IMG/VR virus record: IMGVR_UViG_3300045988_146009 | Span: 1 to 64,000 of that record | DNA from: a virus | Reading direction: 5' to 3' (one strand) | DNA: 64,000 bases | Shown: positions 11,921-62,597 of the stretch, in pieces | Position numbering within the stretch: position 1 is the stretch's first letter | How the letters are laid out: every line of letters starts with the position of its first letter | Translations under genes and position numbers: made by a program | Notes under the pieces: generated by a model | Told to the model about the DNA's origin: nothing | Database searches by the model: none | What the model saw: only the letters and a program-made list of their open reading frames with translations

Positions 11921-11974
11921 TGTTACTGGACTATAGCAGGGGAGATTAAAATGTAAAGGGTCTCTTGTGTCATA

Positions 11975-21905: not shown

Positions 21906-22029
21906 TTTTATGTTTTCTATTTTAGTTTGTTGGTTGGTTGCGGGGTTGTGTTCCCCTTACGCAATCCTTTATATTATATTAGAGGGGAAACGCAAGGGAA
22001 ATGTTCATGCCTTGTGTCATACTTAACTG

Positions 22030-23743: not shown

Positions 23744-23855
23744 TTTTCTATTTTAGTTTTAGGCGGTTGCCTCGTTACGTGTTTCTTTATAACATTTTTG
23801 AGCAGGTAAACAAGGAAAATGTTCATGCCTTGTGTCATACTTCACTGTTAATCAG

Positions 23856-24831: not shown

Positions 24832-24911
24832 TCTTTATAGCATCTTTGAGCAGGGGCACAAGCGTTTTATTTCACGTTTGTGTCATACAAAATTGTTCCA
24901 CGTGGAACTTT

Positions 24912-36105: not shown

Positions 36106-36390
36106 ATGAACCAACGAAAGAAACTTCAAAAAGAACTTACCGCCAATCGGATTTCAATGCGCCACCTGAGACGGTTGGCGTATAGTCTTGAATCCAAGGG
36201 AGATTTAACCGCTACGCAGTGCATCATTGTAAACAACAAGATTCCCCTTTTCTTCAATTTCTCTCCTTCCATTCCCGTCAACTTCAAACCCATCTACCCC
36301 TTCATTTACAATCACGCTTATTGGATGAAGGACAAAAAGGACTGGGCTTTGACCTGCTACGAAGACGACAGTTATGCTTACAATAAATAG
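36106..36390 (+). CDS. Hypothetical protein (94 aa)
   Basis: ORF. It overlaps the HNH gene start by 17 nt. Confidence 0.4.
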   Translation: MNQRKKLQKELTANRISMRHLRRLAYSLESKGDLTATQCIIVNNKIPLFFNFSPSIPVNFKPIYPFIYNHAYWMKDKKDWALTCYEDDSYAYNK

Positions 36391-41270: not shown

Positions 41271-43094
41271 ATGGCTCGCACATTCACCAAGTATGGTCTC
41301 TCCTGGCCTATTGGAACGAGTGCAGTAGATATTGAACTGTACTGTTTCAAGTACGACCACCCCACGGAAAAGGGAGGACTCAACCGCTATGGTCACGCAA
41401 AGAATGCGATTGACCTGCTCTGGAATTACCAGGACTCCCCTACTCCAATCATATGGAACCCTTGGCTTGAGATGGGCCTAGAGGCATGTTGTAAAAACGA
41501 TGTGTGCATCATGGGGGGAGGTTCCTCCTGTGGGAAGAGCATGATGATGGCTATTATGGCCCTATTGTTCTACCTTGCGGACCCAGTAAATACCTTATGC
41601 CTCGTTACCTCCACAACCATTGATGGCGCGAAACAGCGTATCTTCAAGGATATTAAACGATTTTGGAGAACATCCTTTCCAGGCAAGCTGGTAGATGGCA
41701 GGGGACAGATTAAAGGCATCAACGAAGAAGGTCTTCTGGACGATTCCCGCGGTATCAAGATTGTCCCCTGCGCGAACATTGGCGACCCGAGCTCCAGGTT
41801 CATTGGTATCAAGGCAAAGAACATGCACGTATTTTATGACGAGCTTTCCGAACTTCCGATTGAACTTGTAGATGTCTGGCGAAGCAACCTTCGAACCAAC
41901 GCCGTTGATACTCCCCCGACTCTTATGGCCGCCTCCAACCCGAAGAGCAAGATGGACGCTTTTGGCCTTCTGGCAAAACCACGACTTGGGTGGAACAGCT
42001 TAGACATCACGGAGGTAGATACGTGGGAAACTACTGATGGCATTTATGTCAGGTTTGATAACACTAAGAACCCCCGTATTTCTCTTGGACGTGAAGACTG
42101 GTCTTGGTTTACAGATTACCAAACTATTCAGGATGCAATTGATACCTACGGGGAGAACTCTCCCCAGGTTCTCCGATTCTACAAAGCGACCTTTTCGGAC
42201 GATGTGGAAGAAGGGTGCCTAATCTCCGAGAATGAGATTATCGCCGCGGCATGCGACACTCGCCCCATTTGGGGTTCGGAAGAGCCTGTGAAGATTGCGG
42301 CTATGGACCCTGCCTACACCAACGGCGGGGACTTGACGGTTCTTAAAACAGCCTTCGTTGGTCTCACGATTGAGGGGAACCTCGCCCTCTGCCAGGACAG
42401 AACGGTCGTACTCAAGGCTCCGAGCGCAAAGTCCTCTACGATGAACAAGAAGGACCGGAGCTTTGTAATCGCAAGACAGGTGAAGGAAATCCTGGAAGAA
42501 GAAGGCATCCCTGCTGAGAACTTCATTGTGGACATTACTGGTGGGGTTAGTTTCGGGGACGTACTCAGTTCTTTCATTGATTCTAATTTCATCTCTCTGT
42601 CCTATGCTGGCAAGGCTTCTACCGCGGCCATATCAGCGAAGGATTCCGCAAGGGCCTGTGACGTTTACCACAACAAGGTATCCGAACTTTGGGGTTCCAT
42701 GCAACAGGCTATCAAGGCGCGTCAGCTTTTTGGTCTTGACCCAACTACCATCAACGAGATTAAATCTCGAAAGTACACCCTCGTTGGTAACAGGATTAAG
42801 ATGGAAGAGAAGGCGGATATGAGAAAGAGGCTTCGAAAGAGTCCGGATAACGCTGATACGGTAGCCATGCTTTGCATGCTTGCCCGCCGTAAGTTCCCAG
42901 CACTATTCGGGAAGATTGCAAGGAGGAGCTACACCTCTACGCCTACGGTGGAAAGCCAAGTTGAAGTGAATAGCAATGGGGTTAAAGTAATCCGAGGACC
43001 CTATCTCAAAGCCTACCTAAAAGATGTAGAGGTAGTTCCGGATAAAAGAGACTGGCGGGATGAAGCCCTACGTTTAAGAAATTTAAAACTCTAA
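41271..43094 (+). CDS. terL: Terminase large subunit
   Basis: Walker A CIMGGGSSCGKSMMMA and Walker B HVFYDELSE in the ATPase domain. The C-terminal RNase-H-like nuclease has acidic residues (IAAMDPAYTNGGD, DNADTVAM). An 84-aa antisense ORF is rejected. Confidence 0.85.
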   Translation: MARTFTKYGLSWPIGTSAVDIELYCFKYDHPTEKGGLNRYGHAKNAIDLLWNYQDSPTPIIWNPWLEMGLEACCKNDVCIMGGGSSCGKSMMMAIMALLFYLADPVNTLCLVTSTTIDGAKQRIFKDIKRFWRTSFPGKLVDGRGQIKGINEEGLLDDSRGIKIVPCANIGDPSSRFIGIKAKNMHVFYDELSELPIELVDVWRSNLRTNAVDTPPTLMAASNPKSKMDAFGLLAKPRLGWNSLDITEVDTWETTDGIYVRFDNTKNPRISLGREDWSWFTDYQTIQDAIDTYGENSPQVLRFYKATFSDDVEEGCLISENEIIAAACDTRPIWGSEEPVKIAAMDPAYTNGGDLTVLKTAFVGLTIEGNLALCQDRTVVLKAPSAKSSTMNKKDRSFVIARQVKEILEEEGIPAENFIVDITGGVSFGDVLSSFIDSNFISLSYAGKASTAAISAKDSARACDVYHNKVSELWGSMQQAIKARQLFGLDPTTINEIKSRKYTLVGNRIKMEEKADMRKRLRKSPDNADTVAMLCMLARRKFPALFGKIARRSYTSTPTVESQVEVNSNGVKVIRGPYLKAYLKDVEVVPDKRDWRDEALRLRNLKL

Positions 43095-43764: not shown

Positions 43765-43796
43765 GCCCCGTCTAGTAGGCGGGGTTTCTTTTTTGT
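43765..43796 (+). terminator. Intrinsic terminator followed by TTTTTTGTATGACACAACAC
   Basis: GCCCCG...CGGGGT stem, then TTTCTTTTTTG. The GTATGACAC motif overlaps the ATG of the next gene. Confidence 0.55.
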
Positions 43797-44696
43797 ATGA
43801 CACAACACAATATTGATAGAATCTATTTCTATGGTATAACTCAACAAGACATGGCCATTTCAAAAGCTGAACAACGAAAGAAAGAACGGATAGCCAAGAG
43901 CAAGGCCCGAAGGAACCGTGGCATAAAAAAACATGATGTAGACAAGAGTGACCTTCGACCCCGGAATTTTCAGGAGCTTATGTACAAGTGGCTCCCCGCT
44001 ACCCTTGAATTTAATTACAGGGGAGAAGACTTTGATGTATATGATTACTACGCCGCAGGAACAAGCGGAGGTGGACAGAACCCCCTTGCTATCGGTTCTA
44101 CAAATGGGGCATTAGAAATCATTGGGTACACCAAGTTCCCAAGTACTCCCTATGCAGTAAGATGTGTATGTGGTCGAGTAATGAAGCTGAATATTAAGGA
44201 CTTCAACGAACACCCCCACTGTGGGTGTTTTTTCCGTGCTGTCCGAACAGCCTACCTGATTCGCACCCGCATTGAAGCAGTTCGCTCCTGGCTGAATAAT
44301 GTGGGAGACTGGTTACTTGACCTTGAAGTTATCGAGGATTATATGGTAGACTTCATTGATAAGTCCCGAGGTCTGGACCAAAGGAAAACCCCCTATGTGA
44401 GAAAGTCCCCCGCTGAACCATTCATCAATTTACTTCACGGGAAAACTGACCCAATGCCGCAGGAATTTCTTGATTTCTTCCTGCTCATTTCTACGACGAA
44501 AAGCTATAAAAAGCTCCTTACAGAACTCGTTGATAAGAACAGCGAATACCCTTTGTGGGAAGCTATTCCCCTCAGCGACATGTCCGAGTATGAGAGGGTG
44601 AGCAATTCCCTCCCGGAGTTTGATGCGGCAACCTTCATTAATCTTATCCACCATCTCAATGAAACAGAAGCTTCCAAGTTTACGGAGGGTAGTTAA
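43797..44696 (+). CDS. Hypothetical protein (299 aa)
   Basis: ORF only. Confidence 0.6.
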   Translation: MTQHNIDRIYFYGITQQDMAISKAEQRKKERIAKSKARRNRGIKKHDVDKSDLRPRNFQELMYKWLPATLEFNYRGEDFDVYDYYAAGTSGGGQNPLAIGSTNGALEIIGYTKFPSTPYAVRCVCGRVMKLNIKDFNEHPHCGCFFRAVRTAYLIRTRIEAVRSWLNNVGDWLLDLEVIEDYMVDFIDKSRGLDQRKTPYVRKSPAEPFINLLHGKTDPMPQEFLDFFLLISTTKSYKKLLTELVDKNSEYPLWEAIPLSDMSEYERVSNSLPEFDAATFINLIHHLNETEASKFTEGS

Positions 44697-48772: not shown

Positions 48773-49933
48773 ATGAGCGACGTAGTAATCATTCCCTCCA
48801 ACGAAGTACCTATCCCCACCAATGGTGGAAGCGATAACCTCCTCTCCAACCTGATGGAACAGGCCGCAGGGACCGTGGTATCAGACCCCACGCCTTCACC
48901 TCAGTCAACTCCAGCCCCAGCTCCGGCCCCACAGGATTCTCCAGAACCAGCTCCTGTTGAAACTATTGAGGACAACACTCTTCCCGAAGACGAAGAGAAT
49001 CCTTCCCCTGAAAACGAACCAACGGAACCTAAGGTAGAAGAGGATAAGCCTCGTGGACAACATCAGAGTGCCGCGGCGGGGAAAAGGTTCGCTGAGATGC
49101 GTGTTCAACTTCGTGAGCAGACGAAGACCATATCTGAACTGACATCCAAGCTCGAAGCACTTAAAGAGAACCCCCCTGCTTCCGAAGACGTAACTAATCT
49201 GAAAAAGGAAGTAGAAACCTACAAGGGGGTCCTCAATGCGTTTGCCTATCAAACTTCGGACCAGTATAAAACCGAAGTGTCCCAACCGTTCGAAAAAGCC
49301 TCAACGGCTATATCGTCCCTTGCCCCCTCAGTCACCCAGGATGCCTTGAATGAGGTAGCCCTGAATGGGGACCTGGATGACTTTGACCGGGAGAATGCCT
49401 ATGAAGAGATTGCTACCGAAGCGGGCTTACAGGCCAATGAGATTAGCAAGTTCGTCAGGCTCGCCAAGGTACGTGATGCCGCTATCGCTAAGGCTACCGA
49501 GTTCAAAGAGAAAGCTGATACCTTCCGTGAGAAATTCCTTTCCGAGATTAAGGGAGACGGAAAGTACGAAGTGGACTTAACGAACTATACGAACGATGCG
49601 TTCAAAGCGGAAGCTGAAAGCTTTGGTCTCAAACTGGACGACGAGGGTTTGTCAGAAATCGTGAAACAAGGTAGGCACCTTGCTCATAAAATTGACAACG
49701 CTTCCTTTATGAAAGCGGCCATCCTTCCGAAAGTTGTGGACGCATTGGAAGATGCCCGTTCAGAGATTGCAGAACTCAACAAAAAGATTGCAAAGCTCAG
49801 AGCATCAAATCCTTCTGCTACAAAGGGGGTCTCCTCTAATACGGCCCCCGCTCCAGCGAAGGCACCTGAGAGCAAGAGTCCTAGAAGTGTTGAAGACCTA
49901 TTTGGTGAAGCAATGAAAATGTCGGGGTTTTAA
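48773..49933 (+). CDS. Putative scaffolding/head-assembly protein (386 aa), Pro/Glu-rich N-terminus and coiled-coil-rich body
   Basis: Composition and position, immediately upstream of the capsid gene. Confidence 0.45.
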   Translation: MSDVVIIPSNEVPIPTNGGSDNLLSNLMEQAAGTVVSDPTPSPQSTPAPAPAPQDSPEPAPVETIEDNTLPEDEENPSPENEPTEPKVEEDKPRGQHQSAAAGKRFAEMRVQLREQTKTISELTSKLEALKENPPASEDVTNLKKEVETYKGVLNAFAYQTSDQYKTEVSQPFEKASTAISSLAPSVTQDALNEVALNGDLDDFDRENAYEEIATEAGLQANEISKFVRLAKVRDAAIAKATEFKEKADTFREKFLSEIKGDGKYEVDLTNYTNDAFKAEAESFGLKLDDEGLSEIVKQGRHLAHKIDNASFMKAAILPKVVDALEDARSEIAELNKKIAKLRASNPSATKGVSSNTAPAPAKAPESKSPRSVEDLFGEAMKMSGF

Positions 49934-49964: not shown

Positions 49965-50012
49965 AAAGAAGGTACATCAATTAACGATGTACCTTCTTTT
50001 GCTTTTCATCGT
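49965..50012 (+). terminator. Strong intrinsic terminator (14-bp perfect stem AAAGAAGGTACATC, 7-nt loop, T-run)
   Basis: Read directly, between the scaffold-like and capsid genes. Confidence 0.75.
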
Positions 50013-50143: not shown

Positions 50144-51418
50144 ATGGCTACTCCTACTAACCCCTCCGAAATCGCCGCAGGGGATACCATCATGGTAAAT
50201 ATGAGCAACCTCCTGAAAAAGGAGATGTTCAAAACTCAAGTCCGTATTTCTCCCTGGAACAGTCAGATGGTCCAGCAGATTGCGTGGGAAGACGGCGTGG
50301 GTGATACGGGCCGAGTCAACGTGTTCGGTGCGTCCTTCCTCCCGGCTCAGTGGAATCCGGTAACTCTCCAGTCCACCTCCTACGACCCTGGTCTCCAGGT
50401 GAACGAAGTTGGTTCTACGGAATACTCCTTCTCCCGCGACATCACGATGCTGGCCTCTCAGAAGATTGACGTGACTCGTCTCCGTCAGTCCTGGCAAGCT
50501 CGTCAACAGGCTGTTGCCATCGCGGAAGGTCTTGCCTCCATGGTGGGTTACAACTGGTCTGTGCGTTACCGTGACAACTATTCCTCCTGCGCCACCTACA
50601 AGCTGGTGCTGACCGCTAACGGCATTGTTGGCCTGGACGCTATTACGTCCGATATTACCTCCTTCCCGGAAGTCCAGCCCGAAGCGGCCCTGAACTCCGC
50701 GGTCATGGACATGGTTTACAACGATGTTCTCCAATTTGAAGGCGCGTTTGAATCTGCTGATGGTATGACCAATGGTGCTCCGGTGTTCACGGTTATGGCC
50801 TCTCGTAACACGATTGACTTCATTACCCGTGGCTCCGACGTTTCCCATAACGACTGGCGATGGGCTGAGGCAACCTACGGCGAAAAGTCCTTCCTCATGA
50901 ACCAGCTTGGTGCAAAGAAGGCTTACAAGAACTTCATGTATGTTCTTGACTCTCTCGCCCCGCGTTACACCTTTGATGCCACGAAGCCCGCTGGCCAGAA
51001 GTGGATTCGCGTTGAACCCTATATCCTGGTCCCCACCACGAACGGCACCCGTGCTATTCAGAACCCGGCTTACCGTGACGCTCCCTTCGAAGACACCATC
51101 GTGTTCGTGAAGGACGTGTTCAAGTCCATGGTGGTCAACCCGTACACGGGCGATGACCGAGCCACGTTCAATCCGCAGACCTTCTCCGGTGAACTGGAAT
51201 GGGTAAACAACCGAGACATGGATAAGAACTACCTTGGCACTCAGGGCCTGTTCATTGCTTCCCTGTCCAATGGTGTGATGCCCGTCAAGCCCCGTCATGG
51301 CGTTGTGATTCGTCACGTTCGCGCCCTGGCTAACGCTGAACTGGTGGACGCTAACGGCAATCCGATTGGCTCCCTGGCTTCCACGCCCGCTGTTGCTCTG
51401 ACCGCTAACGGCCTGTAA
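50144..51418 (+). CDS. Putative major capsid protein (424 aa)
   Basis: Position after the scaffold-like gene, size, and the strongest GC3/CTG/CGT codon bias in the window, which suggests high expression. A 436-aa antisense ORF is rejected. Fold not verified. Confidence 0.55.
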   Translation: MATPTNPSEIAAGDTIMVNMSNLLKKEMFKTQVRISPWNSQMVQQIAWEDGVGDTGRVNVFGASFLPAQWNPVTLQSTSYDPGLQVNEVGSTEYSFSRDITMLASQKIDVTRLRQSWQARQQAVAIAEGLASMVGYNWSVRYRDNYSSCATYKLVLTANGIVGLDAITSDITSFPEVQPEAALNSAVMDMVYNDVLQFEGAFESADGMTNGAPVFTVMASRNTIDFITRGSDVSHNDWRWAEATYGEKSFLMNQLGAKKAYKNFMYVLDSLAPRYTFDATKPAGQKWIRVEPYILVPTTNGTRAIQNPAYRDAPFEDTIVFVKDVFKSMVVNPYTGDDRATFNPQTFSGELEWVNNRDMDKNYLGTQGLFIASLSNGVMPVKPRHGVVIRHVRALANAELVDANGNPIGSLASTPAVALTANGL

Positions 51419-51746: not shown

Positions 51747-52355
51747 ATGTCAAATCAAGTTGTACCCCCTTATCCCAGTGAAGTAACAACCGTTACTCTC
51801 GCTCAAGCTCAGGCTGGAATTCAGATTGCGGTTAATCAACCTGTTTCTATTACCGGGTTGACCGCCAATACCCGGTATCGAGTCACCTGTATTACCGACA
51901 AACACAGTACTATCAAAGTAGCTACCGATGGGTCCACTGTAGCCGATGGACAGATTAGCGGCATTCCCGCTTACATTTCTCCCGCCGCAACTACGGCCAC
52001 CATTACTGTAACCACGTTCGCTACTACGGTCGCCACGTTAACGGTGGAAGCCGCTCCTATTGCCGCCCCAACAGACGTAACCCTCCCCTCCCTTCTTACC
52101 CCCAATGTAAGGTATAAAGTCACTGGTGCTCCAGGTGCCAACGTTCCTTTCATACTTTCTTTGAAGGCACCCTCCGTGGTTTCCCTTTTTGTGTCATACC
52201 TTTCCTCTGATGGGAGTGTGGTATTCAGGGATGTTGTCATTGGTATGAATGAGTTACGAAATTTAACGAACCTCGGCAAGGGGGACATCCTCCTCTATGT
52301 TGATGGAGACAGTCAGGCCGAAGTGAATTTTTCCTTTACACCTGCCGCTCCGTAA
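51747..52355 (+). CDS. Virion protein with Ig-like/beta-sandwich repeat modules (202 aa)
   Basis: Thr/Val/Ala-rich beta-strand patterns (TATITVTTFATTVATLTVEAAP). Repeats are shared with the next gene. Confidence 0.55.
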   Translation: MSNQVVPPYPSEVTTVTLAQAQAGIQIAVNQPVSITGLTANTRYRVTCITDKHSTIKVATDGSTVADGQISGIPAYISPAATTATITVTTFATTVATLTVEAAPIAAPTDVTLPSLLTPNVRYKVTGAPGANVPFILSLKAPSVVSLFVSYLSSDGSVVFRDVVIGMNELRNLTNLGKGDILLYVDGDSQAEVNFSFTPAAP

Positions 52356-52386
52356 TATACTATAACATCAATTCTTTTACTGAAAA

Positions 52387-53334
52387 ATGACTGCCATTCC
52401 TATTCCAGCTACTGACGTTACCCTCCAGGCGGGGGTAACGTATCAGCTTACAGGTCTTACGGCCTCCACAAAGTACACCCTAACAGTATCTTCGGACAAG
52501 TTCTGCGAAGTCCTGGTAACTACCGACGTTAACGAGAATCCTACCGTTCTTGCTCAGGGCCAGCTCTACAACGCTCCGTTTACTTTCACCGAACCTGCGG
52601 CTCAGACAACCGCTCGTATCACGGTATATGCCCCCACTGGTGCCAACCTGAAACTTACGGGCGCGGCCACCCCGGCAACTCCCGCCGCAGTTGAGCTGGT
52701 TTCCCCCGCTCTCCCTAATACGGCTTACAAGAAGACGGGACTCACCGTAGGTAAAACCTACGTCGTACAGATTAGCGGGAACACCCCTAGCTGTGTTGGT
52801 CTTGGTTGGGAGGGAGGTACGGAACTCGAACCGCTCATTGCTACCAATGGCAAGGCTATTATTGTGGCCGAAGCTACCCAGCTAAATCTTTGGCTGGACA
52901 GTGCGGAATCTGCCACCATTACTGTAACGGAAGCCACGTCTCTTCCCCCGTGTTATATCCCAACCGTAACCGTTGATTTAGCTGAGGCCACCAAGGTAGT
53001 ATCCCTGCCCGCTGGCTCCCCTGCTGGATTATACAGGGTGGATATTTCTGTGGATGATAAATCCGCAACGGCTCATGACTCCACCATTACCGCAACTCCT
53101 ACAAATTCTATCTTATTGAATTCTGTATTGGGCTATGCTGACGCAGGGGGCTACATGGCTCCTTCCACTCTTGCCGCTGGAGTAATTTCTGGAGTGAGCG
53201 ACATGAAGGGTAGCCTCGTTATTACCTCTCCGTATCAAGCCCAGGCAACTACGGTACTCACCTATAAGCCTGCAACGGGTGCAACAGGTTGGAGCGGTAA
53301 AGCGATTGTGTCTTACCTCGGTCCGATTTCCTAA
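52387..53334 (+). CDS. Virion or tail-associated protein with repeated Ig-like modules (315 aa)
   Basis: TDVTLQAGVTYQLTGLTASTKYTLT, TARITVYAPTGANLKLTGAATPATPAAV and ESATITVTEATSLPP are internal repeats similar to those in the gene at 51747. Confidence 0.55.
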   Translation: MTAIPIPATDVTLQAGVTYQLTGLTASTKYTLTVSSDKFCEVLVTTDVNENPTVLAQGQLYNAPFTFTEPAAQTTARITVYAPTGANLKLTGAATPATPAAVELVSPALPNTAYKKTGLTVGKTYVVQISGNTPSCVGLGWEGGTELEPLIATNGKAIIVAEATQLNLWLDSAESATITVTEATSLPPCYIPTVTVDLAEATKVVSLPAGSPAGLYRVDISVDDKSATAHDSTITATPTNSILLNSVLGYADAGGYMAPSTLAAGVISGVSDMKGSLVITSPYQAQATTVLTYKPATGATGWSGKAIVSYLGPIS

Positions 53335-53343
53335 AACAAAAAA

Positions 53344-53380
53344 AGGGTAGGAGCTAACACCTCCTACCCTAAACCTTTCT
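53344..53380 (+). terminator. Hairpin terminator GGGTAGGA/TCCTACCC, related in sequence to the one at 51426
   Basis: Read directly. An A-run lies upstream and TAAACCTTTCTTC downstream. Confidence 0.5.
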
Positions 53381-53389
53381 TCAAAATCT

Positions 53390-55459
53390 ATGGCATTTAC
53401 GATTCAACCTTACACTTTAGGGGACCCTATTACGCCGAATACGACATATAGCCTCCCCTCGCTGACACATTCTGCCGCGGCCCTAACTTCTACATATCCG
53501 AAGGTAGTCCTTGAAGTGGTTACAAAGGCCCCTGCGGATGATGCGTGGAGTAATATCCTTCCTATTGACTACCTCGTTAATGGCGAAGTCTGTGGAACCA
53601 TGCTTGATTTAACCGCAGGTACTAGTCAAATCCTATATTTCCGAGTACCTGTTACTGACCCCGCTGTTAAATACGCCACCCTAAAGCTCGATACGCTCGG
53701 CTTCAACTATCCGGACGTAGAGGAAATTAAGACCTATGAGGACGCTTCGGGCGCAACGAGCGGGTACTGGGATATTACCTCCCTCGTAGAAAAGGGAAGC
53801 GTTCATACTCTCAGCGTGGTACAGGCCAACCTCGGCGTATCAGACCCAAACATTACCCAACCAGTCATCAATATCCTCGGTGTAGGTGCTGACTCGAATG
53901 TCCGTTCAGTAATGAGAGAGGGTCAGCAAGGCCCCGCTCAGTTTCCCTTCCTCCCCGATAGCCTGAGAACGGTGGTTCATCTATCTGCTCCGGAAGGATT
54001 TACTTATAAGTTTACTGTTCAGAAGGTAAATTTTGGTGGAGCATCTGGCGGATTTGACCCCACGCAAGATGCTGATATTACTGGGACTTGGAGTTTCAGT
54101 AAGGTATCGGGGTTAACGATGAATAACGAGGCACCTATCATTTTAGGACAGGGGGTTAATGCAGTAAAAATCCATGGTTCTGGAACAGGGCCCGCAGTTA
54201 TTGAGGGTAGTAATTCCAGTTCTCTCAGCATTGCAATTCCTATTAGTACTCAGGAAACAGTAACCGCCCATGATGGTATATCCTTTGATAGTAGCACTAT
54301 CACTACAGAGAAGAACTTACTCCTTTTTGTAGGACCCTCTTCCACAATGAGATTAGCTCAGTCCGCGGACGGCAACCTCCATGTTGGACCCTTACCTCGA
54401 GGGGGACTAAGCGTGGGGACGACAGGGGTTTGCGCTTTCTCTTCCTATGTTTATTTTAAAGGAGCGACCTTCGAACAGGGGGTTACTTTAGGAAGCACCA
54501 TGACTGTAGCAGGTGCCGCCACCTTCTCTAGTGGGATTCAAACCCCCGCAACAGCGGTGTCTTATTTTGGACCACTTACCCAGGTTCAAGGGACTAGCGA
54601 TGGTGGACTCAACATTACGGGGGGTATAGATAAAAAGTTGACGACGAACTTGGCTATCGACCCCGCGGGTGGTATCAATTACGTGATTGTAGGAGGCAGT
54701 AGCACTGCTCAAACTCTCTGCACCATGTACCACCCTACCTTGGACTCCTATGGTTGTAAGTGGACCTATACAGCCAACAACGGCTACTATCAGCTTCGCC
54801 ACAAGAACGGTACAGCCTGGATGACTTTCGACCCGACAGGAGATGTATTCTTTTCTCAGACCATTGACGTAACAGGGGCTTCCGTTTTTAAGGCGGGCGT
54901 GACGATGAATCAGACCCTTACTGTTGCCGGAGGTTCTATTTTAAGTGGGGGAATCACGTTTAAGACAGGGTTCCAAACCATAGTGGGGCAACGTACCCCG
55001 GTGGCAGTAACTTTCCAGCCTGCCAATGAGGGTCAGATGGAAGATATTCAGCTACAGACGGATGCTGGAGGGGCTTATATTAGACTAAGCCGTACTACCT
55101 TCTATATGGGAAGTACAACCCCCGATGCTAATGATGTGCTCAATGTATCTGAAATGGACCTGCGGTACATGCAAAAACCTGCGAACGATGCACCTATGAT
55201 ATTTCCGGGGGAGCTACAGGTTGCTGGCCTTGTACAAGCTCAGAACCTGCGAGCCACCAGCGGTATCAACAAGAATAACCAGCCTATAGCAAACCTGACG
55301 GACATGTCGGTGCTGAACCGGAGTGAAAATGATGACAGATATTGCAAGTTCGTTTCATTGACGTCTGCTCAGTATACGGATTTGGCCACAAAAGACCCCA
55401 CTACCCTATACCGAATTACTGACAGCAATCTCGTGTACCTGGGAACCATTCAACTCTAA
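53390..55459 (+). CDS. Putative tail fibre or receptor-binding protein (689 aa)
   Basis: Gly/Thr/Ser-rich beta-type composition, position within the tail module, and a hydrophobic C-terminal region typical of fibre tips. Confidence 0.55.
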   Translation: MAFTIQPYTLGDPITPNTTYSLPSLTHSAAALTSTYPKVVLEVVTKAPADDAWSNILPIDYLVNGEVCGTMLDLTAGTSQILYFRVPVTDPAVKYATLKLDTLGFNYPDVEEIKTYEDASGATSGYWDITSLVEKGSVHTLSVVQANLGVSDPNITQPVINILGVGADSNVRSVMREGQQGPAQFPFLPDSLRTVVHLSAPEGFTYKFTVQKVNFGGASGGFDPTQDADITGTWSFSKVSGLTMNNEAPIILGQGVNAVKIHGSGTGPAVIEGSNSSSLSIAIPISTQETVTAHDGISFDSSTITTEKNLLLFVGPSSTMRLAQSADGNLHVGPLPRGGLSVGTTGVCAFSSYVYFKGATFEQGVTLGSTMTVAGAATFSSGIQTPATAVSYFGPLTQVQGTSDGGLNITGGIDKKLTTNLAIDPAGGINYVIVGGSSTAQTLCTMYHPTLDSYGCKWTYTANNGYYQLRHKNGTAWMTFDPTGDVFFSQTIDVTGASVFKAGVTMNQTLTVAGGSILSGGITFKTGFQTIVGQRTPVAVTFQPANEGQMEDIQLQTDAGGAYIRLSRTTFYMGSTTPDANDVLNVSEMDLRYMQKPANDAPMIFPGELQVAGLVQAQNLRATSGINKNNQPIANLTDMSVLNRSENDDRYCKFVSLTSAQYTDLATKDPTTLYRITDSNLVYLGTIQL

Positions 55460-55474
55460 CATTTCACAACTACT

Positions 55475-55852
55475 ATGTTCATTCATATCCAATACCATCT
55501 GAACGAAGAAAGAAAATTTCTCCCCATGGAAGGGACTATTTCTTTCGTAGGTCCGAAATCTGATAACTGGGCCTATTCCTCCTCCATGAGTCTCAAGGAC
55601 CTCCCTGCCAAACAACTCGCAGTTTATCAGGGAATTACAACCCTCATTCAAAGTGGAAGTCAACCTTGGGTAGCCTCTCAGATTCATGCTTTCCCCACCG
55701 CTACAGCGACTGGGGCTAAAGCTGTTAGCCTACATATTGAGGCCATCCATGATACCACGAATGCTATCCGTGTTTTCACACCCAAGGAAGACCCCAATCT
55801 CCTGGTGGAAGGAGACGAAGCATATTCGTTCTTTGATTATTTTACTAAGTAA
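55475..55852 (+). CDS. Hypothetical protein (125 aa)
   Basis: ORF only. Confidence 0.5.
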   Translation: MFIHIQYHLNEERKFLPMEGTISFVGPKSDNWAYSSSMSLKDLPAKQLAVYQGITTLIQSGSQPWVASQIHAFPTATATGAKAVSLHIEAIHDTTNAIRVFTPKEDPNLLVEGDEAYSFFDYFTK

Positions 55853-55863
55853 ACATTATGAAA

Positions 55864-55893
55864 AAAGGCAAAGGCAAAGGCAAAGGAAAGGGT
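55864..55893 (+). repeat. Hexanucleotide tandem repeat (AAAGGC)n inside a 17-codon micro-ORF (55858..55911, MKKGKGKGKGKGKGCGK)
   Basis: Read directly. Confidence 0.6.
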
Positions 55894-55931
55894 AAGGGTT
55901 GCGGTAAGTAATCCGACCTTATAAAAATTCA

Positions 55932-55972
55932 GCAACCCCGCTTTGTATGACACAGAGCGGGGTTGCTTTTTA
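55932..55972 (+). terminator. Intrinsic terminator whose loop carries TTGTATGACACAG
   Basis: GCAACCCCGCT...AGCGGGGTTGC, an 11-bp stem, then TTTTTAT. Confidence 0.6.
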
Positions 55973-55996
55973 TCTATATTGCATTATCCTCAAACC

Positions 55997-56638
55997 ATGT
56001 CTGAACCAATCGACGTAATCGAACAAAGCGTAGAGATGTGGACTCCACCCCCACTGCTTGAACAGCAACTTGAGTTAGCCGCAAAGGCTGGACGAGTATG
56101 TTACCAAAGTGAAGGTAAAACCCCCAAGGAAGAATTTTTACGCCGCATTATTAAGATGGGACATGAGAGCGTACTTGAACACGCTTCCGTCACTTTCTCT
56201 ATCATCACGAACAGGGCAGTAACTCACCAGCTTGTTCGCCATCGTATCGGCGTAGCATATAGCCAGGAAAGCCAGCGTTACTGCAACTACCAGGGGAAGC
56301 TACAGGTTATCCGACCTTCCGAACCTATGGACAAGAATGCCTATTTGGATTGGGAATACTCCATGAAGACGTGCGCTCAAACCTATAATTGGCTGGTATG
56401 CAAGGACAATGAGTACCGAGTTAAGCCGGAGGTAGCCCGCGGTGTTCTCCCCAACGATACCAAAACACAGGTTGTCGTGACCTTCAACATCCGTTCACTT
56501 CGTCACTTCCTAACTCTCCGTCTGGATACTCATGCCCAGCACGCCATCCGGGACATCGCCAGTAAAATCTACAAGCTAATAGACTTGCATGGCTTTGGTT
56601 ATCTGCTCGAAGGAATTAACACCAAGGGATTAATCTAA
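55997..56638 (+). CDS. thyX: Flavin-dependent thymidylate synthase ThyX. The ORF track starts at a TTG at 55943; the ATG at 55997 is preferred.
   Basis: ThyX signature RHR-x7-8-S is present as LVRHRIGVAYSQESQRY. Confidence 0.8.
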   Translation: MSEPIDVIEQSVEMWTPPPLLEQQLELAAKAGRVCYQSEGKTPKEEFLRRIIKMGHESVLEHASVTFSIITNRAVTHQLVRHRIGVAYSQESQRYCNYQGKLQVIRPSEPMDKNAYLDWEYSMKTCAQTYNWLVCKDNEYRVKPEVARGVLPNDTKTQVVVTFNIRSLRHFLTLRLDTHAQHAIRDIASKIYKLIDLHGFGYLLEGINTKGLI

Positions 56639-57360
56639 TGAAGAAAGAACAACACACAGTAAAGCTCGTTGCTGAACTACAGAAGGCATACGATTACTTT
56701 AATGAACACCTTTTCAAGGACGAACTCCCTGATTGCATCATGGGGTTGTGCAATGCAAATAAAAGAACCTTGGGATATTACCACCGTAGTCAATACCTGA
56801 CTACGGAAGGAGCTATCAAAGTAGATAAGATTTCCTTAAACCCCTCATACTTTGTATCCCAAGGTGTTAAAAAAGTCATGGGGACTCTCGTCCATGAGAT
56901 GTGCCACCTTTGGCGTGAAAGGATGTGTGACAAGCCATCTCGGGGTGGGTATCATGACCGTAAATGGGGGAGCAAGATGAAAGAGGTAGGGTTGTACCCT
57001 TCCAATACCGGGGAAGAAGGTGGAAAAGAAACAGGGAATCAGATGACCCACTACATTATTGTGGATGGTCCTTTTGATAAAGCCTTCAAGGAGCTTAAGG
57101 AAGAGCACAATATAACTCTTCCCTATATTCACAAGACCCAACTGGGCTTCCTCAATGGAGTCAACAATCCCATGCTCAAAGAGAATCCTGAACTTCTGGA
57201 AGCTATTGAGAGGGAAAATCCTTTTGGAAGCATCTCCAAGAACCGTTCCAACCGGGTCAAGTACATTTGCCCTGTATGCAACTCCAAAGTATGGGGAAAG
57301 AAAGAGCTCTATATTGTATGTGGGGCCTGCAAAGTAACTATGGACCCGGATGATAATTAG
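56638..57360 (+). CDS. SprT-like zinc metallopeptidase domain protein with a C-terminal zinc ribbon
   Basis: HExxH present as LVHEMCHLWRE. C-terminal CPVCNSKVWGKKELYIVCGACKV. Confidence 0.7.
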   Translation: MKKEQHTVKLVAELQKAYDYFNEHLFKDELPDCIMGLCNANKRTLGYYHRSQYLTTEGAIKVDKISLNPSYFVSQGVKKVMGTLVHEMCHLWRERMCDKPSRGGYHDRKWGSKMKEVGLYPSNTGEEGGKETGNQMTHYIIVDGPFDKAFKELKEEHNITLPYIHKTQLGFLNGVNNPMLKENPELLEAIERENPFGSISKNRSNRVKYICPVCNSKVWGKKELYIVCGACKVTMDPDDN

Positions 57361-57397
57361 CATTGACACGCACATAACCATATACTAAACTACATAG

Positions 57398-57775
57398 ATG
57401 GAAAACGAAAATCAAAAGAGCCTTGCCGAAACCTTGTATTACGCCGCTGGCAATACCTCTCCCTATGATAAAGCAACCTATGAACAACAGCGTCCCTTCA
57501 TTCATCAAGCAACCTATATTCATGCCCATAAAGATGAAATTGCCGCAGAAGTTCTCGGTGAAACCATCTCCCGATTTGGAGCCAACAACAAAGTAGTTGA
57601 AGTGGTAAAGGGCATTATCATTGCTGGGCTTGGTGTAGCCGCGGCTCTCGGATTACAGGGTTGCACCACCACCTCTTTTTCCTATGATGCTGATACCGGA
57701 CTTTTCTCTGTGTATGGCTCTAGCCAGGAAGTAGAACAGACGGATGTTCCTCCGGCTGTCCAGGAATCCCATTAA
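57398..57775 (+). CDS. Hypothetical protein (125 aa) with an internal lipoprotein-signal-like segment
   Basis: GIIIAGLGVAAALGLQGC lies at aa 70-87. A GTG at 57602 would give MVKGIIIAGLGVAAALGLQGC, a textbook lipoprotein signal with lipobox LQGC. Confidence 0.45.
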   Translation: MENENQKSLAETLYYAAGNTSPYDKATYEQQRPFIHQATYIHAHKDEIAAEVLGETISRFGANNKVVEVVKGIIIAGLGVAAALGLQGCTTTSFSYDADTGLFSVYGSSQEVEQTDVPPAVQESH

Positions 57776-58811
57776 CATGTTAGAGGACAAACAACCACTT
57801 AGCGAGAGGACGGGGGAAGTTATTCCCCCTCCTCTTCATACCCTCCCACCTCTTCCTGAATTAAATACAGAAGGGGTAAATTGGCCTGGAATTCAATCCC
57901 CGTTCTATGGGAATGAAGGAATCCAGACCGAACCCCCTTTTATTGATTCTGACATTCCATCCCTCCGTAATAATCCGGGGCATTACTTCCAGGTATTTTA
58001 TGACCCCGAGGAAGATGGAACATGGCCCCAACTTCGTTTTACTCAGGGACTTATCATTGATGGGAACGAAAAATTCACCATAGGTTCCCAGCCGTATAGT
58101 AGCCCCAGGGGGAACCCTGTAACAGGATGTTCTTCTGGTTCAAACCCCTCCAATAAAAAAGTTTGGCTAAACGTACTAAGTGACCGAAGTGCTTCTACTG
58201 TAAGTCTGGACGAAGATACAAGCTCCGACTATAGCTTTGAGATTGCCAGGATTGATGACAACGGGAACCTGCAACAGTTGCACGATGGTGCTCTCGTTAT
58301 CGGAGGGGGCGGAGGAGGCTCTTTCCCATTCCGAGTAACTACCCGCCGCCAGCAGAATCCCGTCACTCAGGCTTGGGAAACATTCGCTGTAGTAGATAAG
58401 GGGGGATTCCGGGATACTAAGAGGACTACTGTTCCGCTCACCCAATTTGGGACTACGGGGAAGGTAGAAATACCTATCGTTACTACCGGAACTTTACCTG
58501 TCCAACTGGAATGGAATTACACATGGCCCTATGCCCCCATTACGGGCGCAACGGTCGTTGTGGACGATTCGCCCTGGGATGGCAAAACGGTCGTTACGCC
58601 CATTACGAGCGGTACGGGAACCGGGAAAAGCAAATGTGTTCTGGCCCTGCTCGAAGTAACCGCTAACCCGCAAGGTGGATTTGATGCCACTGTTAAATCC
58701 CAGCTTGTAACCACGGGCCTCAGAGCGATGTGGTATTCTGCTTACGTGGATGATATCTCTGGCCAGATGGGACAGTATGCAGAAGTTTCAATAACTAATC
58801 CAGATGCCTAG
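57744..58811 (+). CDS. Hypothetical virion/tail protein (355 aa)
   Basis: ORF only. Confidence 0.6.
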   Translation: MFLRLSRNPINMLEDKQPLSERTGEVIPPPLHTLPPLPELNTEGVNWPGIQSPFYGNEGIQTEPPFIDSDIPSLRNNPGHYFQVFYDPEEDGTWPQLRFTQGLIIDGNEKFTIGSQPYSSPRGNPVTGCSSGSNPSNKKVWLNVLSDRSASTVSLDEDTSSDYSFEIARIDDNGNLQQLHDGALVIGGGGGGSFPFRVTTRRQQNPVTQAWETFAVVDKGGFRDTKRTTVPLTQFGTTGKVEIPIVTTGTLPVQLEWNYTWPYAPITGATVVVDDSPWDGKTVVTPITSGTGTGKSKCVLALLEVTANPQGGFDATVKSQLVTTGLRAMWYSAYVDDISGQMGQYAEVSITNPDA

Positions 58812-59619
58812 TCTATTAACCTTTCCTGAACCCATTGAGGGAAACTCCGGCAATGAGATTCTTTCTAAATGGTATAATCAGTATGCCTCTCCCCTAACCC
58901 CCGACAACTGGCTATGGTATAATACTGGTGGTCCTACGCTTGAAGGAATGCCTACCCCAGGGGGGATGGCCTGCTCAATTCAGCAAGGGGCCACGTATAG
59001 GCCGGGCGTGAGGTGTTCCAACATAGTAGATGCCTGGAAGATATACAACGCTTTGGGGGATATTAACACACCTGCTCTCGCCGCATCTACTGGTTCTACC
59101 GGATGGAAGACCAATATTAACGCGGAGAAAAGACAAAGAATTTTTAATCCTGATGTTTGGAGTGTGTGGAATCCAGGCTCTCCCCAGCACGTCATGGCAG
59201 GATACGAAATCCCTACTTGGCCTGTTGGGTTTCCCCCGGATGTAACAGGGGACCTAGCCGCTACTCTTGAATCAGACCAGACAGCCGTGCGCTACAACCT
59301 GCTTGGCCCCTGGTACATTGAGAAAGATACAGGTGCAGTATATCTTGATTTTACCATATCCCTTGGGGGAACCTATGCACGAAGGATTCAGAGCCAGATT
59401 CAAACCCTTTTAATTTCCGCTAAACTTGGGAAGACCCAGTATGTCAGGTCCGGAACAAACCCATCATCCGTAAGAGAGATTACCTGGAACACCACTATAG
59501 CTGGTATTCCTGTAGAGTGCCTAGCTACATATTGGTGTTGGAGCCCGATAACTGTACCTGTCCCGGTAATATCACAAGTTGAGAAATGGTTTAAAGGTAT
59601 TCAGTTTGGTTCATTATGA
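58804..59619 (+). CDS. Hypothetical virion/tail protein (271 aa)
   Basis: ORF, translationally coupled to its neighbours. Confidence 0.6.
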   Translation: MPSLLTFPEPIEGNSGNEILSKWYNQYASPLTPDNWLWYNTGGPTLEGMPTPGGMACSIQQGATYRPGVRCSNIVDAWKIYNALGDINTPALAASTGSTGWKTNINAEKRQRIFNPDVWSVWNPGSPQHVMAGYEIPTWPVGFPPDVTGDLAATLESDQTAVRYNLLGPWYIEKDTGAVYLDFTISLGGTYARRIQSQIQTLLISAKLGKTQYVRSGTNPSSVREITWNTTIAGIPVECLATYWCWSPITVPVPVISQVEKWFKGIQFGSL

Positions 59620-60347
59620 CACAACCTGCTCTTGTAAATCCAGACGAAACAGATACAGTAAAACGCATGGAAACGAAAAGCACCGAGGATTGGCTCGACG
59701 GAGACTTCAAAGTATTTGTCCTCGTGGAGTCCTACGTAACACCGCTCTACCCCTCAAGGGACGTGGACCTGCTCCACCTCAGTATTAACTATCTTAGAAA
59801 TATTGGTGTAAAGCAGGAGGATATTGTTATTGTTGGGGATGAACCACAAGCACTCGCATATGGTGAGCAGTATGGAATGAAGACCTACAATACTTTGGAA
59901 TATGATAGGACCAAGCGTAACTTGGAACCTATGGAACGAGCCTATGCGAAGCATGGGGAAGGGAAGAACCTTATTCTCCTCGCTAGTTCTTCCATATGTC
60001 CCTACCGGGAACATAACTTTCTTCGTCAGTTCCAGAATGAAGTATTAGCTAATCCGGATAGCCAGTGCGTCTCCTTCGTGATGGACCCCTATCGTAAGAA
60101 AGATACCTACACGGGAGTTATGGGGTTCAATAAGAAGATGTTGAAGGAGTACTCTCTGGACAATCTTCTGATGGGAATCATCCCTGAAAGAAATGTATAC
60201 CATAACCTGTTCTGCTCATACCGTATTATAACCCCTGACCAGCTTGGGAATGAAGATGTCATCAGAGCCATGACCAATCACGCCTACAATCTTAACATCT
60301 ATGAATCTCCAGTACCCTCTAACTATTCTTACAGCATTCCTCTCTAA
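59616..60347 (+). CDS. Hypothetical protein (243 aa)
   Basis: ORF with 4-nt coupling to the upstream gene. Confidence 0.6.
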   Translation: MTQPALVNPDETDTVKRMETKSTEDWLDGDFKVFVLVESYVTPLYPSRDVDLLHLSINYLRNIGVKQEDIVIVGDEPQALAYGEQYGMKTYNTLEYDRTKRNLEPMERAYAKHGEGKNLILLASSSICPYREHNFLRQFQNEVLANPDSQCVSFVMDPYRKKDTYTGVMGFNKKMLKEYSLDNLLMGIIPERNVYHNLFCSYRIITPDQLGNEDVIRAMTNHAYNLNIYESPVPSNYSYSIPL

Positions 60348-60460
60348 GGACATATTGGATGTAGCAGAAAATCTGAGAGAGTATATTCAAAACCAACCCA
60401 CTAGAAGTTATTCCTATTACCGGGAACAGTGGGAGGAAAGTATCAAACAAAAGGAAAACT

Positions 60461-60691
60461 ATGAAAACTAAAGACCCAACGCGGGAGAAACGGTTCGTAC
60501 ATATCTTGGATGAATTCGTTGAAGTAGACCCCTACATTACTATCCGTTTAAACGTAGGTCCTCATAAAGGAGAACTAAGATATGTCCCTAATCCAGATTA
60601 TTTCCATGCTGAATATATCCAGGAGGGTAGGGAATACAAGAAGAGAAAGAAATACTTACCTAGACAAACCTCTAACCCAAAAACGCTATAA
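60461..60691 (+). CDS. Hypothetical protein (76 aa)
   Basis: ORF only. Confidence 0.4.
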   Translation: MKTKDPTREKRFVHILDEFVEVDPYITIRLNVGPHKGELRYVPNPDYFHAEYIQEGREYKKRKKYLPRQTSNPKTL

Positions 60692-60713
60692 CCTCTTAGA
60701 ACTTATTAGAACC

Positions 60714-61169
60714 ATGGAAAAAGAAAACAAACAATATGTCGAAGCCATCACGAAAGAAATCCGTTATCCCTACGGTCCCGGTATCCAGAAACTCGACGAC
60801 GGGTCGTTCAAAATCACTGTATGTCGTTCTGAATGTAGGGCTGTTGCTAAGGCTGATAACCTTGAAGTGGCTAAGGCCATCCAAGACAAACTGAAAACTG
60901 ATTCAGGATATTTCCTTTCTTGCGTATCTAGTATTCTCCACAAGGAGGTTACGAAGATTCGGAACCAGGATATTGAATCCAAGTCAGCCTCCATTATACG
61001 ATTGGTCAATGAGATTATGGGACTTGTGGAAGAAGGGAGGATGCTATTTCAACAAGCTGTGTCCCAAGGCATTGAGGGAGACGTTCTCACCCGAGCCTAT
61101 TCGGGGCTTGCTGAGTTATATCCCGGGAATCCGGAAGTACCCCTTCTCCATCTAATCTCTGAGGATTAA
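60714..61169 (+). CDS. Hypothetical protein. The ORF track gives 60582..61169; the start at MEKENKQ (60714) is preferred to avoid overlap with the 60461..60691 ORF.
   Basis: ORF only. Confidence 0.5.
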   Translation: MEKENKQYVEAITKEIRYPYGPGIQKLDDGSFKITVCRSECRAVAKADNLEVAKAIQDKLKTDSGYFLSCVSSILHKEVTKIRNQDIESKSASIIRLVNEIMGLVEEGRMLFQQAVSQGIEGDVLTRAYSGLAELYPGNPEVPLLHLISED

Positions 61170-61206
61170 TCTTGTCATACCGTACTAAACGTACTACACT
61201 TTCGAT

Positions 61207-61683
61207 ATGGACTGGAACAACCTATATTATGATGCAGGACGGAACTCGTGGATTACCCAGCAACAAGCTAGCTGGCCTTCCGTCTCCGTCCCTCCTCCGG
61301 CTGTAGTAGCCGATGCAAGCCTAATCCTTTCTTCCCCGGACGTTACTCAAGCTTTAACCATCACTGTTAAGAATGTTCCTACAGGTGGGAGTGTGTCAAC
61401 CCCTGCTGTCTTCGATATAGCCATGGTGAGTAAAAATGGAGAGGTAGTTTATAATAGTCAGAAACCCTTTAAAGTAGATATGAGCGGAAATACTTATACT
61501 GTTTCAGGAGCTTTCTCACTTATTGATTCTTACCCCACTATCATCTCCATTCTTGAAGATTACCCCTACATTGATGTAGACATGACCTTAAAGGATACCA
61601 CCAACTTTAAATTCATAACCTCCCCTGTTCGTGTACGAATCTACAATGAACTCTCTAATGTAAAGAAGCCCTATGGAAACTAA
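61207..61683 (+). CDS. Hypothetical protein (158 aa)
   Basis: ORF only. Confidence 0.55.
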   Translation: MDWNNLYYDAGRNSWITQQQASWPSVSVPPPAVVADASLILSSPDVTQALTITVKNVPTGGSVSTPAVFDIAMVSKNGEVVYNSQKPFKVDMSGNTYTVSGAFSLIDSYPTIISILEDYPYIDVDMTLKDTTNFKFITSPVRVRIYNELSNVKKPYGN

Positions 61684-62101
61684 TATGGAAACAGATTTAT
61701 TTGATACCTATTTCTCTGGAAAGACCCTCAATCTTCGTGCCCTATATGAAGTGAGGAATGCTATTCGGCTTTCCCATTATGGAACCAAATCGGGATTCCA
61801 TCACCTCAAGTACGACAAGGTAACGAAGATTGTTGATGATTACCTGGACAAGTATGTTGAGGCCACCATCGGTCTCGATGGGACCACTGCGAACTTGGTG
61901 TACGAAGACCTGGAAACGAACCCCTTTGGTACGATAAGTCCGAATAGTACGGAAAGAGCTAAGGAACAATTCGAAAACGCAATCACCTTCTTCAAGAAAA
62001 CTCTGGAAGAACACAGTTCCCACCGTGTCCAGCGAACTATCATTGAGAGCTTTGAAGAGGATATGGAACCATACATTGGTGTAACTGACCAGTATGTCTA
62101 A
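61673..62101 (+). CDS. Hypothetical protein (142 aa)
   Basis: ORF only. Confidence 0.55.
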   Translation: METNMETDLFDTYFSGKTLNLRALYEVRNAIRLSHYGTKSGFHHLKYDKVTKIVDDYLDKYVEATIGLDGTTANLVYEDLETNPFGTISPNSTERAKEQFENAITFFKKTLEEHSSHRVQRTIIESFEEDMEPYIGVTDQYV

Positions 62102-62597
62102 TATTGTCTATCCCCCTGCTAATGGAATTGGCATCTGCTCCAATACCCCTTCTCTAACTAAAAGCATCTTGAGGCATCATGTTCCCCAGCTAACCAAGAA
62201 AGCTCACAAGGAAGAAGATGCTTGGTTCTACATGTGGTACTACCGGGAAGGTCTTTACCTTCCTTTCGGCATTGCTCTTGAATCCATGAGGATTGGGATG
62301 GCCGCAAGGTTTGGTGGTATGGAACCGGGGTGGCTTGTCGTAACCACTGAAAAAGACGAAGATGAAGACGAGCCGGAAGCATGGGAAGGAAGGGAAGCTA
62401 CGGGAGGAAAGGGAGACGACTGGTGTTTCCGTTATATGATTCCCTGTGAGAATCCCCCTGCTGATACCCCAAGCTTCATAATCCAGGGCTTGAGGTATAT
62501 CATCGAAGAGGAATCTGAATTTTTCCCCGACTACAAACACCTCATGGATTTAAAATGGGAGATTGCTGAATGCACTCCCTACAACCAAACACAATAA
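62094..62597 (+). CDS. Hypothetical protein (167 aa)
   Basis: ORF only. Confidence 0.55.
   Translation: MSNIVYPPANGIGICSNTPSLTKSILRHHVPQLTKKAHKEEDAWFYMWYYREGLYLPFGIALESMRIGMAARFGGMEPGWLVVTTEKDEDEDEPEAWEGREATGGKGDDWCFRYMIPCENPPADTPSFIIQGLRYIIEEESEFFPDYKHLMDLKWEIAECTPYNQTQ

Follow-up and report, generated by a model that had tools for sequence, protein, structure and literature searches.

Two neighbouring genes are described here from the IMG/VR virus record IMGVR_UViG_3300045988_146009, positions 1 to 64,000 of which were analysed (this whole stretch is called the window): thyX, encoding a flavin-dependent thymidylate synthase (55997-56638, plus strand), and sprT, encoding a SprT-like zinc metalloprotease (56638-57360, plus strand). 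The two are probably independent accessory genes in an inter-operon hotspot of gene turnover in an undescribed clade of human-gut phages. A sequence-only reading of the window had described them as one moron-like mobile cassette that had entered the tail gene cluster in one piece and brought its own terminator and promoter. This is very unlikely, as the two genes occur separately at the same site, and lineages that differ in the contents of the slot still have the terminator before it and the promoter box after it. The backbone of the region is composed of tail-fibre genes, a 125 amino acid (aa) gene, a micro open reading frame (micro-ORF), the terminator, the variable slot, a TTGACA(C)-type box, a gene for a small membrane protein and a block ending in an endolysin gene.

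The variable slot and its borders

Homologues of SprT, ThyX and the gene starting at 57744 led to the relatives, and the slot was defined as the interval from the tail-fibre block to the homologue of the gene starting at 57398. When IMG/VR was scanned with patterns from single proteins, those from gene 57744, ThyX and PolA gave no relative; only the SprT scan was productive. The loci L032 and L037 are closest to the window, with 95-99 % DNA identity in most segments, and their slot contains the same terminator with GTATGACAC, thyX and sprT. In L034, L038 and L039, all from the human gut, the downstream genes are 82-92 % identical and the slot contains thyX only (60 % identical). In these thyX-only lineages thyX leads straight into the promoter box and the gene 57398 homologue behind it. 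The more distant L004, L005, L033 and L036 have a SprT gene (47-52 % identical) embedded in 3-6 kb of unrelated small genes, and the 20-kb loci available for L004, L005 and L033 showed no thyX. L040-L043, L048 and L049, also more distant, have eight other small genes and neither thyX nor sprT. Lineages with thyX only, with SprT only, with both and with neither thus all exist, which argues for two independent accessory genes rather than one unit.

In L035, a member of the same clade by its TerL (63 % identical), PolA (44 %) and helicase (44 %), the slot was not recovered and a thyX gene (48 % identical) is found between primase and PolA. The small genes in this interval have no counterparts in the window. 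Because the primase-PolA interval is variable too, no exact insertion or deletion of thyX can be defined in L035. The sequence-only reading had named the presence of these genes in the replication module of relatives as evidence against a cassette, and for thyX this is the arrangement seen in L035. A link between L035 and the L040/L048 lineage, proposed from the break points and from the similar ERR433xxxx run accessions of L035 and L049, is unproven and was not adopted; the loci do not overlap.

A single cassette would account for two genes that are adjacent and overlapping, that lie together between a terminator and a promoter box and that are present as a pair in three near-identical strains. 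It would also fit a site that varies among relatives, and the synteny comparison bears out the variability of the site but not the single unit, with thyX and SprT gained and lost independently. The composition of the genes does not set them apart either: the G+C content is 48.1 % for thyX and 44.0 % for sprT against a genome range of 43-55 %, G+C at third codon positions (GC3) and codon usage are unremarkable in both, and the codon divergence is typical for genes of their length. Repeats flanking the pair were limited to short matches at chance level, no recombinase or homing-nuclease gene was found in the slot and the scan gave no terminator after sprT. Without deviant composition, flanking repeats or a terminator of its own after sprT, the pair is not a self-contained mobile unit.

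In the slots of L004, L005 and L036 SprT is accompanied by small genes, among them one for a Dam methylase (1e-12), a cytidylyltransferase-like gene and genes for beta-solenoid repeat proteins. In the L040 lineage two small slot genes encode Lar-like zinc ribbons that score below the Pfam cut-off. The slot genes listed for relatives are at 4705-5196 and 10672-11286 in L005 and at 5274-6314 and 3631-4215 in L040. Dam-type methyltransferase, cytidylyltransferase-like and sub-threshold Lar-like genes are what anti-defence or accessory islands typically contain.

The left edge of the hotspot is marked by a putative micro-ORF, MKKGKGKGKGKGKGCGK, of 17 codons with a lysine/glycine repeat (55858-55911, plus strand), between the last gene of the tail-fibre block and the terminator. 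Three diverged lineages have it too, with a varying number of KG repeats (4229-4276 in L032, about 883-915 in L034 and about 6828-6872 in L038), while L040 has an unrelated micro-ORF at the equivalent position. The intrinsic terminator (55931-55972, plus strand) has a stem at 55931-55967 of 16 pairs, of which 9 are G-C, a 5-nt loop and a following TTTTT. With a folding energy of -29.4 kcal/mol (z = -7.2) it is very strong, none of 200 shuffles folds as well, and it is the strongest terminator-like site within the last 16 kb. It is predicted to end the tail-fibre transcription unit. A strong terminator after the tail-fibre block is found in four divergent lineages (the window group, L034/L038, L040 and L004) with different stem sequences. 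Since it is kept whatever follows, the terminator is a feature of the backbone. Its presence between the tail-fibre genes and thyX was read correctly from the sequence, its attribution to a cassette was not.

At the right edge a sigma-70-like promoter box, TTGACA-17-TAAACT (57363-57391, plus strand), precedes the gene at 57398-57775, which codes for the small membrane protein. The box is one of three with the top score of 10/12 in the scan. L034 and L038 have TTGACAC-17-TACACT at the equivalent position, and as the promoter-like box is kept while the contents of the slot differ, it is also assigned to the backbone. The DNA identity between the window and L032 is 69 % in the 125-aa gene and 88 % in thyX and sprT; it is 100 % in the 37 nt from 57361 to 57397 and 99.4-99.8 % in the next 3.4 kb. 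This sharp change at the SprT stop codon puts a breakpoint of recombination precisely at the slot's right border.

The nonamer GTATGACAC in the terminator (55945-55953, plus strand) spans the upper stem and the 5-nt loop and is conserved in L032. Eight exact copies are found in the window against 0.31 expected, a number reached by none of 100 shuffles. Five are on the minus strand at 11967-11975, 21083-21091, 22014-22022, 23832-23840 and 24880-24888, one is on the plus strand at 43795-43803 in addition to the terminator copy, and one (52191-52199, minus strand) is inside a plus-strand gene. The other copies of the repeat, noted as GTATGACAC(AA), mostly head intergenic regions, especially in the minus-strand block, where they are followed by a short hairpin and then by CCCTGCT and TGnTATAAA-like (extended -10-like) boxes 29-42 nt downstream. 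Three copies abut or sit within terminators. The repeat looks like a phage-specific regulatory element, and the copy in the terminator loop may serve in regulation too, although the partner elements of the other copies are missing there. The sequence-only reading had located GTATGACAC in the loop correctly and had taken it for a promoter motif. With ATGACA in the loop as the -35 box, only a poor -10 box (TTATCT) is found at 17 nt, and TATATT is about 22 nt away. Because there is no acceptable -10 box at normal spacing, GTATGACAC was not accepted as a promoter of thyX, and the scan gave no consensus promoter between the terminator and thyX.

A position inside the tail cluster, also part of the cassette interpretation, is plausible on one side only. 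Upstream of the slot there are three tail-fibre-like genes (51747-55459), the last of which (53390-55459) ends in the Pfam domain Phage_tail_C (3.8e-07), followed by the 125-aa gene (55475-55852). The distal tail-fibre genes and the 125-aa gene (52964-55852) show 63-77 % aa identity to L032 and L037, strains that are otherwise 98-99 % identical. Such divergence between near-identical strains is what recombination that diversifies receptor-binding proteins would be expected to produce, and together with the Phage_tail_C domain it makes it plausible that the upstream genes are tail fibres. The downstream genes (57398-62597) gave no Pfam, PHROG, NCBIfam or PADLOC hits and are not established as tail genes. 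The AlphaFold2 (AF2) model of 57744-58811, built from 19 homologues, had a predicted local distance difference test (pLDDT) score of 55, and a Foldseek search with it gave only generic immunoglobulin-like matches; with a poor model and generic matches this was rejected as evidence on tail identity either way.

ThyX and the SprT-like protein

The ThyX protein (213 aa) matches Pfam Thy1 (PF02511) at 2.6e-51, with 174.6 bits against a cut-off of 24.8, and the NCBIfam equivalog TIGR02170 with 144.7 bits against a cut-off of 87.9. The signature is RHR-x8-SQRY (R81-H82-R83 to S92-Q93-R94-Y95). In an alignment to the Mycobacterium tuberculosis enzyme (3gwc) the HxSVLEH, RHR...SQRY, AR..LPN and R...HAQ segments of the substrate and flavin adenine dinucleotide (FAD) sites are kept. 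Translation likely starts from the ATG at 55997, as the longer ORF opens with a TTG that falls within the hairpin. The stop codon of thyX (56636-56638) shares one base with the ATG of sprT (56638-56640), and this TAATG junction (56636-56640) allows translational coupling of the two genes. ThyX was matched by 1,772 GenBank phage records, which upholds the statement that it is common in phages. The identification of the gene and the overlap with sprT are upheld as well.

The SprT-like protein (240 aa) matches Pfam PF10263 at 5.6e-11 (42.7 bits, gathering score 25.6) and phrog_6361 at 1e-20. A search over 5.8 billion proteins gave 263 homologues, and among the matches listed 120 of 120 carried PF10263. 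The family alignment places the catalytic zinc site at H86-E87-M-C-H90 with H106 as third ligand (56893-56955, plus strand), aligned with HEMIH...GH of Spartan, and a C-terminal zinc ribbon with four cysteines at C211, C214, C228 and C231 (57268-57330, plus strand). H86, E87, H90, H106, C211 and C214 are invariant in an alignment of 54 homologues and C228 and C231 nearly so. The ribbon sits behind a linker of variable length, has a weak profile similarity to the RPB12/eL43 zinc ribbons and shows beta-hairpins at 206-221 in an AF2 model made from the family alignment (pLDDT 90.6). The isoelectric point of the protein is basic (8.5).

When the family profile was compared with the PDB, the best match was the SprT domain of human Spartan (6mdw, E 2.7e-4), with the catalytic helix and the third histidine aligned. 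In a Foldseek search of the PDB 6mdx (6mdx_A) and 6mdw came first, with probability 1.00 and a template modelling (TM) score of 0.36-0.47. No Wss1, ArdC or IrrE chain was found among the PDB matches listed. The chromosomal bacterial SprT equivalog (NCBIfam NF003339 / PRK04351) gave 19.7 bits, below its cut-off of 113. The matches to Spartan, the failure of the chromosomal equivalog and the appended zinc ribbon together make the protein a Spartan-type zincin in a subfamily of its own. The HExxH protein with C-terminal zinc ribbon seen by the sequence-only reading is therefore confirmed; of its SprT/Wss1-like assignment the Spartan fold stands, but Wss1 finds no place among these matches.

The same reading had considered a SprT-like protein unusual in a phage, which does not agree with the data. 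A SprT-like protein is reported to be widespread in mycobacteriophages (PMC12363180), and some jumbo phages have one to three SprT-like copies, for which the authors suggest host-protein targets (PMC7824862). A Foldseek search of the predicted viral structures in BFVD with the SprT model gave 17 matches at E <= 1e-3 and dozens more below the threshold. The named ones are mostly annotated as SprT-like and come from Achromobacter, Vibrio, Bordetella, Aeromonas, Yersinia, Serratia and Enterococcus phages, a haloarchaeal virus and baculoviruses. Only the subfamily of the window protein is rare in deposited phages, with tblastn matches in 8 of 50,697 GenBank records.

This subfamily was found in 28 loci in the IMG/VR scan and in 2,620 PLSDB plasmid records, of which 2,199 (84 %) are conjugative. 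The plasmid carriers are mostly Escherichia, Klebsiella, Enterobacter and Pseudomonas. On the IncN plasmid pIMP-GZ1058 (NZ_KU051709.1 1636-2427, L047) the gene order is mucA, mucB, SprT-like, ardK, with ardB and ardR close by, and on the IncX3 NDM-5 plasmid p2D-NDM-5 (NZ_CP059006.1 23462-24283, L046) the SprT-like gene follows topB and hns. In a metagenomic conjugative element it is near a type IV coupling protein and a RepB primase. At 16 IMG/VR phage loci the most frequent neighbours are a T7-type RNA polymerase (5 of 16), dUTPase (4), integrase (3), RecT (2) and ThyA (1). In T7-like temperate phages the gene lies in the early region, beside or upstream of the RNA polymerase gene, and in two GenBank phages it is a few genes from a DenV-type endonuclease V, near thymidylate-metabolism genes. 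The subfamily is a mobile-element gene that accompanies genes for DNA entry, DNA repair and nucleotide metabolism. The literature search found no published functional test of the plasmid/phage SprT-like subfamily.

These contexts bear on three functions other than the preferred one. A protease for virion maturation or the processing of structural proteins could be suspected from the position of sprT after tail-fibre-like genes, one of them with a Phage_tail_C domain, and is extremely improbable. The homologues belong to plasmids and to early or DNA-metabolism regions rather than to head or tail modules, close relatives have the same structural genes (82-92 % identical) but no sprT, and the strong terminator separates sprT from the structural operon. 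There is also little to be said for a regulatory protease of the IrrE/ImmA kind, cleaving a repressor or a specific regulator, which is judged highly improbable. The zincin fold is shared, ArdC, Spartan and IrrE are structural neighbours (PMC7213743), and the IncN homologue adjoins the regulator gene ardK, but the best sequence and fold matches are to Spartan, the third zinc ligand is histidine as in Spartan, no Pfam Peptidase_M78 hit was returned and no repressor-type gene is adjacent in the window.

The main functional rival has the host's defence or nucleoid proteins as targets. The SprT-like protein would then be a counter-defence or establishment factor that clears restriction, defence or nucleoid proteins off entering DNA, as proposed for the ArdC class on conjugative plasmids, and the slot would be an anti-defence island. 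The conjugative plasmids, the vicinity of ardK, ardB and ardR on IncN, the topB/hns establishment region on IncX3 and the early region upstream of a T7-type RNA polymerase in temperate podophages favour this by analogy, as do the Dam methylase and the Lar-like proteins in the same slot of relatives, and Iyer and colleagues proposed host-protein targeting by phage SprT-like peptidases (PMC7824862). Gene position is circumstantial, however, and the Lar-like hits are under the Pfam cut-off. The sprT gene of the window lies behind a late-looking tail-fibre operon, not in an early block. No PADLOC model matched, which is uninformative as the library covers defence rather than anti-defence proteins. 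ArdC of plasmid R388 combines a single-stranded DNA-binding domain with a Spartan-like metalloprotease domain and has anti-restriction activity, but its protease activity is dispensable for this effect (PMC7213743). Counter-defence as the function is accordingly considered rather unlikely, and the same low probability applies to a phage and plasmid 'establishment protease' distinct from ArdC, which would be tethered to DNA and clear host proteins or covalent adducts off newly entered DNA from within a counter-defence island.

For two accessory genes in a turnover hotspot, the preferred reading, the functions would follow from family membership. ThyX would convert deoxyuridine monophosphate to deoxythymidine monophosphate (dTMP) with methylene-tetrahydrofolate and reduced FAD, giving a dTMP supply for phage DNA synthesis that is independent of the host. 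The SprT-like protein, a Spartan-type endopeptidase that the zinc ribbon would tether to nucleic acid, would cleave proteins on or cross-linked to incoming or replicating phage DNA and so leave replication and packaging unobstructed; its proteolysis would by family be DNA-dependent. Some points weigh against this reading. Most of the relatives are 20-kb pieces, and the SprT-only status refers to those pieces. As the scan gave no convincing thyX promoter, expression of the pair may depend entirely on read-through at the very strong terminator. The DNA dependence, the DNA binding by the zinc ribbon and the protease activity are predictions from sequence, and with the protease activity of ArdC dispensable, a DNA-tethered protease fold is no proof that proteolysis is the working function.

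The phage genome and its clade

The window has a G+C content of 46.8 % and is most of the phage genome. A giant ORF of 3,284 aa (507-10361) without a Pfam domain above threshold is followed by a block of small minus-strand genes (11.4-25.6 kb). The replication module, on the plus strand, has a primase-helicase (28282) and PolA (34038) and then an HNH gene, a helicase, an exonuclease and a Holliday-junction resolvase. The HNH endonuclease gene between PolA and the helicase (36374-37114) has a G+C content of 35.6 % and a GC3 of 22.7 %, against about 50 % in its neighbours, and is probably a homing endonuclease gene inserted recently. The TerL gene (41271-43094) is followed by structural genes that match no family library, among them that of a putative major capsid protein (50144-51418). 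Between the latter and the gene at 48773-49933 there is a perfect palindromic hairpin (49965-49999), scored as a terminator on both strands. Almost no gene of the window has an upstream Shine-Dalgarno sequence, although TTGACA-type promoter boxes are present. No tRNA genes were found in the window.

Neither TerL nor the putative major capsid protein had a tblastn match in 50,697 GenBank phage records, and the DNA of 53000-60500 matched no GenBank phage. The phage could not be placed in any known family. All relatives came from metagenome assemblies, in several cases of the human gut, as contigs of 65-70 kb; the phage is a member of an undescribed human-gut clade with genomes of roughly 65-70 kb. 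The protein cluster of one lineage, the L040 group, has 967 member sequences, and at least one lineage of the clade is abundant in gut metagenomes.

Significance and comparison with known systems

As first stated, the finding matters little. ThyX is a routine auxiliary gene of phages, SprT-like peptidases are already known to be frequent in them, and the 'cassette' dissolves into ordinary turnover of accessory genes that belong to known families. Two by-products are of more use. A well-defined hotspot, with terminator and promoter borders and a breakpoint, has been mapped in a clade whose TerL and capsid proteins have no GenBank matches. A phage gene has also been tied to an uncharacterised SprT subfamily on 2,620 plasmids, two of which were examined (IncN and IncX3) and have SprT next to anti-restriction and SOS-mutagenesis genes; this gives a hypothesis on the role of such proteases for incoming DNA that E. 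coli plasmid systems could test cheaply.

The window ThyX agrees with known ThyX proteins (PF02511/TIGR02170, with structures such as 3gwc and 1kq4 of Thermotoga maritima) in a full-length match above the curated cut-offs and in being a common auxiliary gene of phages. It differs in its short length of 213 aa, in one extra residue in the RHR-x8-S spacing and in being at most 60 % identical to anything beyond its own strain group. The position of the gene behind tail-fibre genes is also unusual, whereas the thyX of L035 is in the replication module.

With Spartan (SPRTN), the DNA-dependent protease of DNA-protein crosslinks, the SprT-like protein shares the HExxH and third-histidine zinc ligands and the combination of a protease with a separate zinc module. 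The identity is only 14-18 %, however, at the TM scores given above. The zinc-binding domain (ZBD) of Spartan is contiguous with the protease, whereas the window protein has a C-terminal four-cysteine ribbon after a variable linker and ends at this ribbon, with no counterpart of the long C-terminal tail. That tail carries SHP, PIP and UBZ elements in Spartan, and Wss1 has VIM/SIM recruitment motifs. The contiguous Spartan-type ZBD and the eukaryotic recruitment motifs that characterize the Spartan/Wss1 crosslink-repair class are both absent from the window protein.

ArdC may be regarded as the nearest studied analogue of the subfamily. Both are mobile-element proteins that join a nucleic-acid-binding module to a zincin protease, in a gene context of establishment and anti-restriction. 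ArdC belongs to another family, with an N-terminal ArdC-N domain, for which the window protein had no Pfam hit, and with glutamate as third metal ligand in place of histidine. The plasmid SprT-like proteins (WP_001452808 of IncN and WP_000196235 of IncX3; phrog_6361 in phages) are 30-41 % identical to the window protein over more than 90 % of the length and share its architecture of HExxH/H and zinc ribbon, but are found on conjugative plasmids beside mucAB/ardK/ardB or topB/hns.

A classic moron differs from the pair in the window, which is not a promoter-gene-terminator unit of its own and has no deviant composition. The region as a whole is like the plasticity regions, hotspots and morons of other phages in having a fixed slot, conserved regulatory bounds, varying contents and a breakpoint at its edge.

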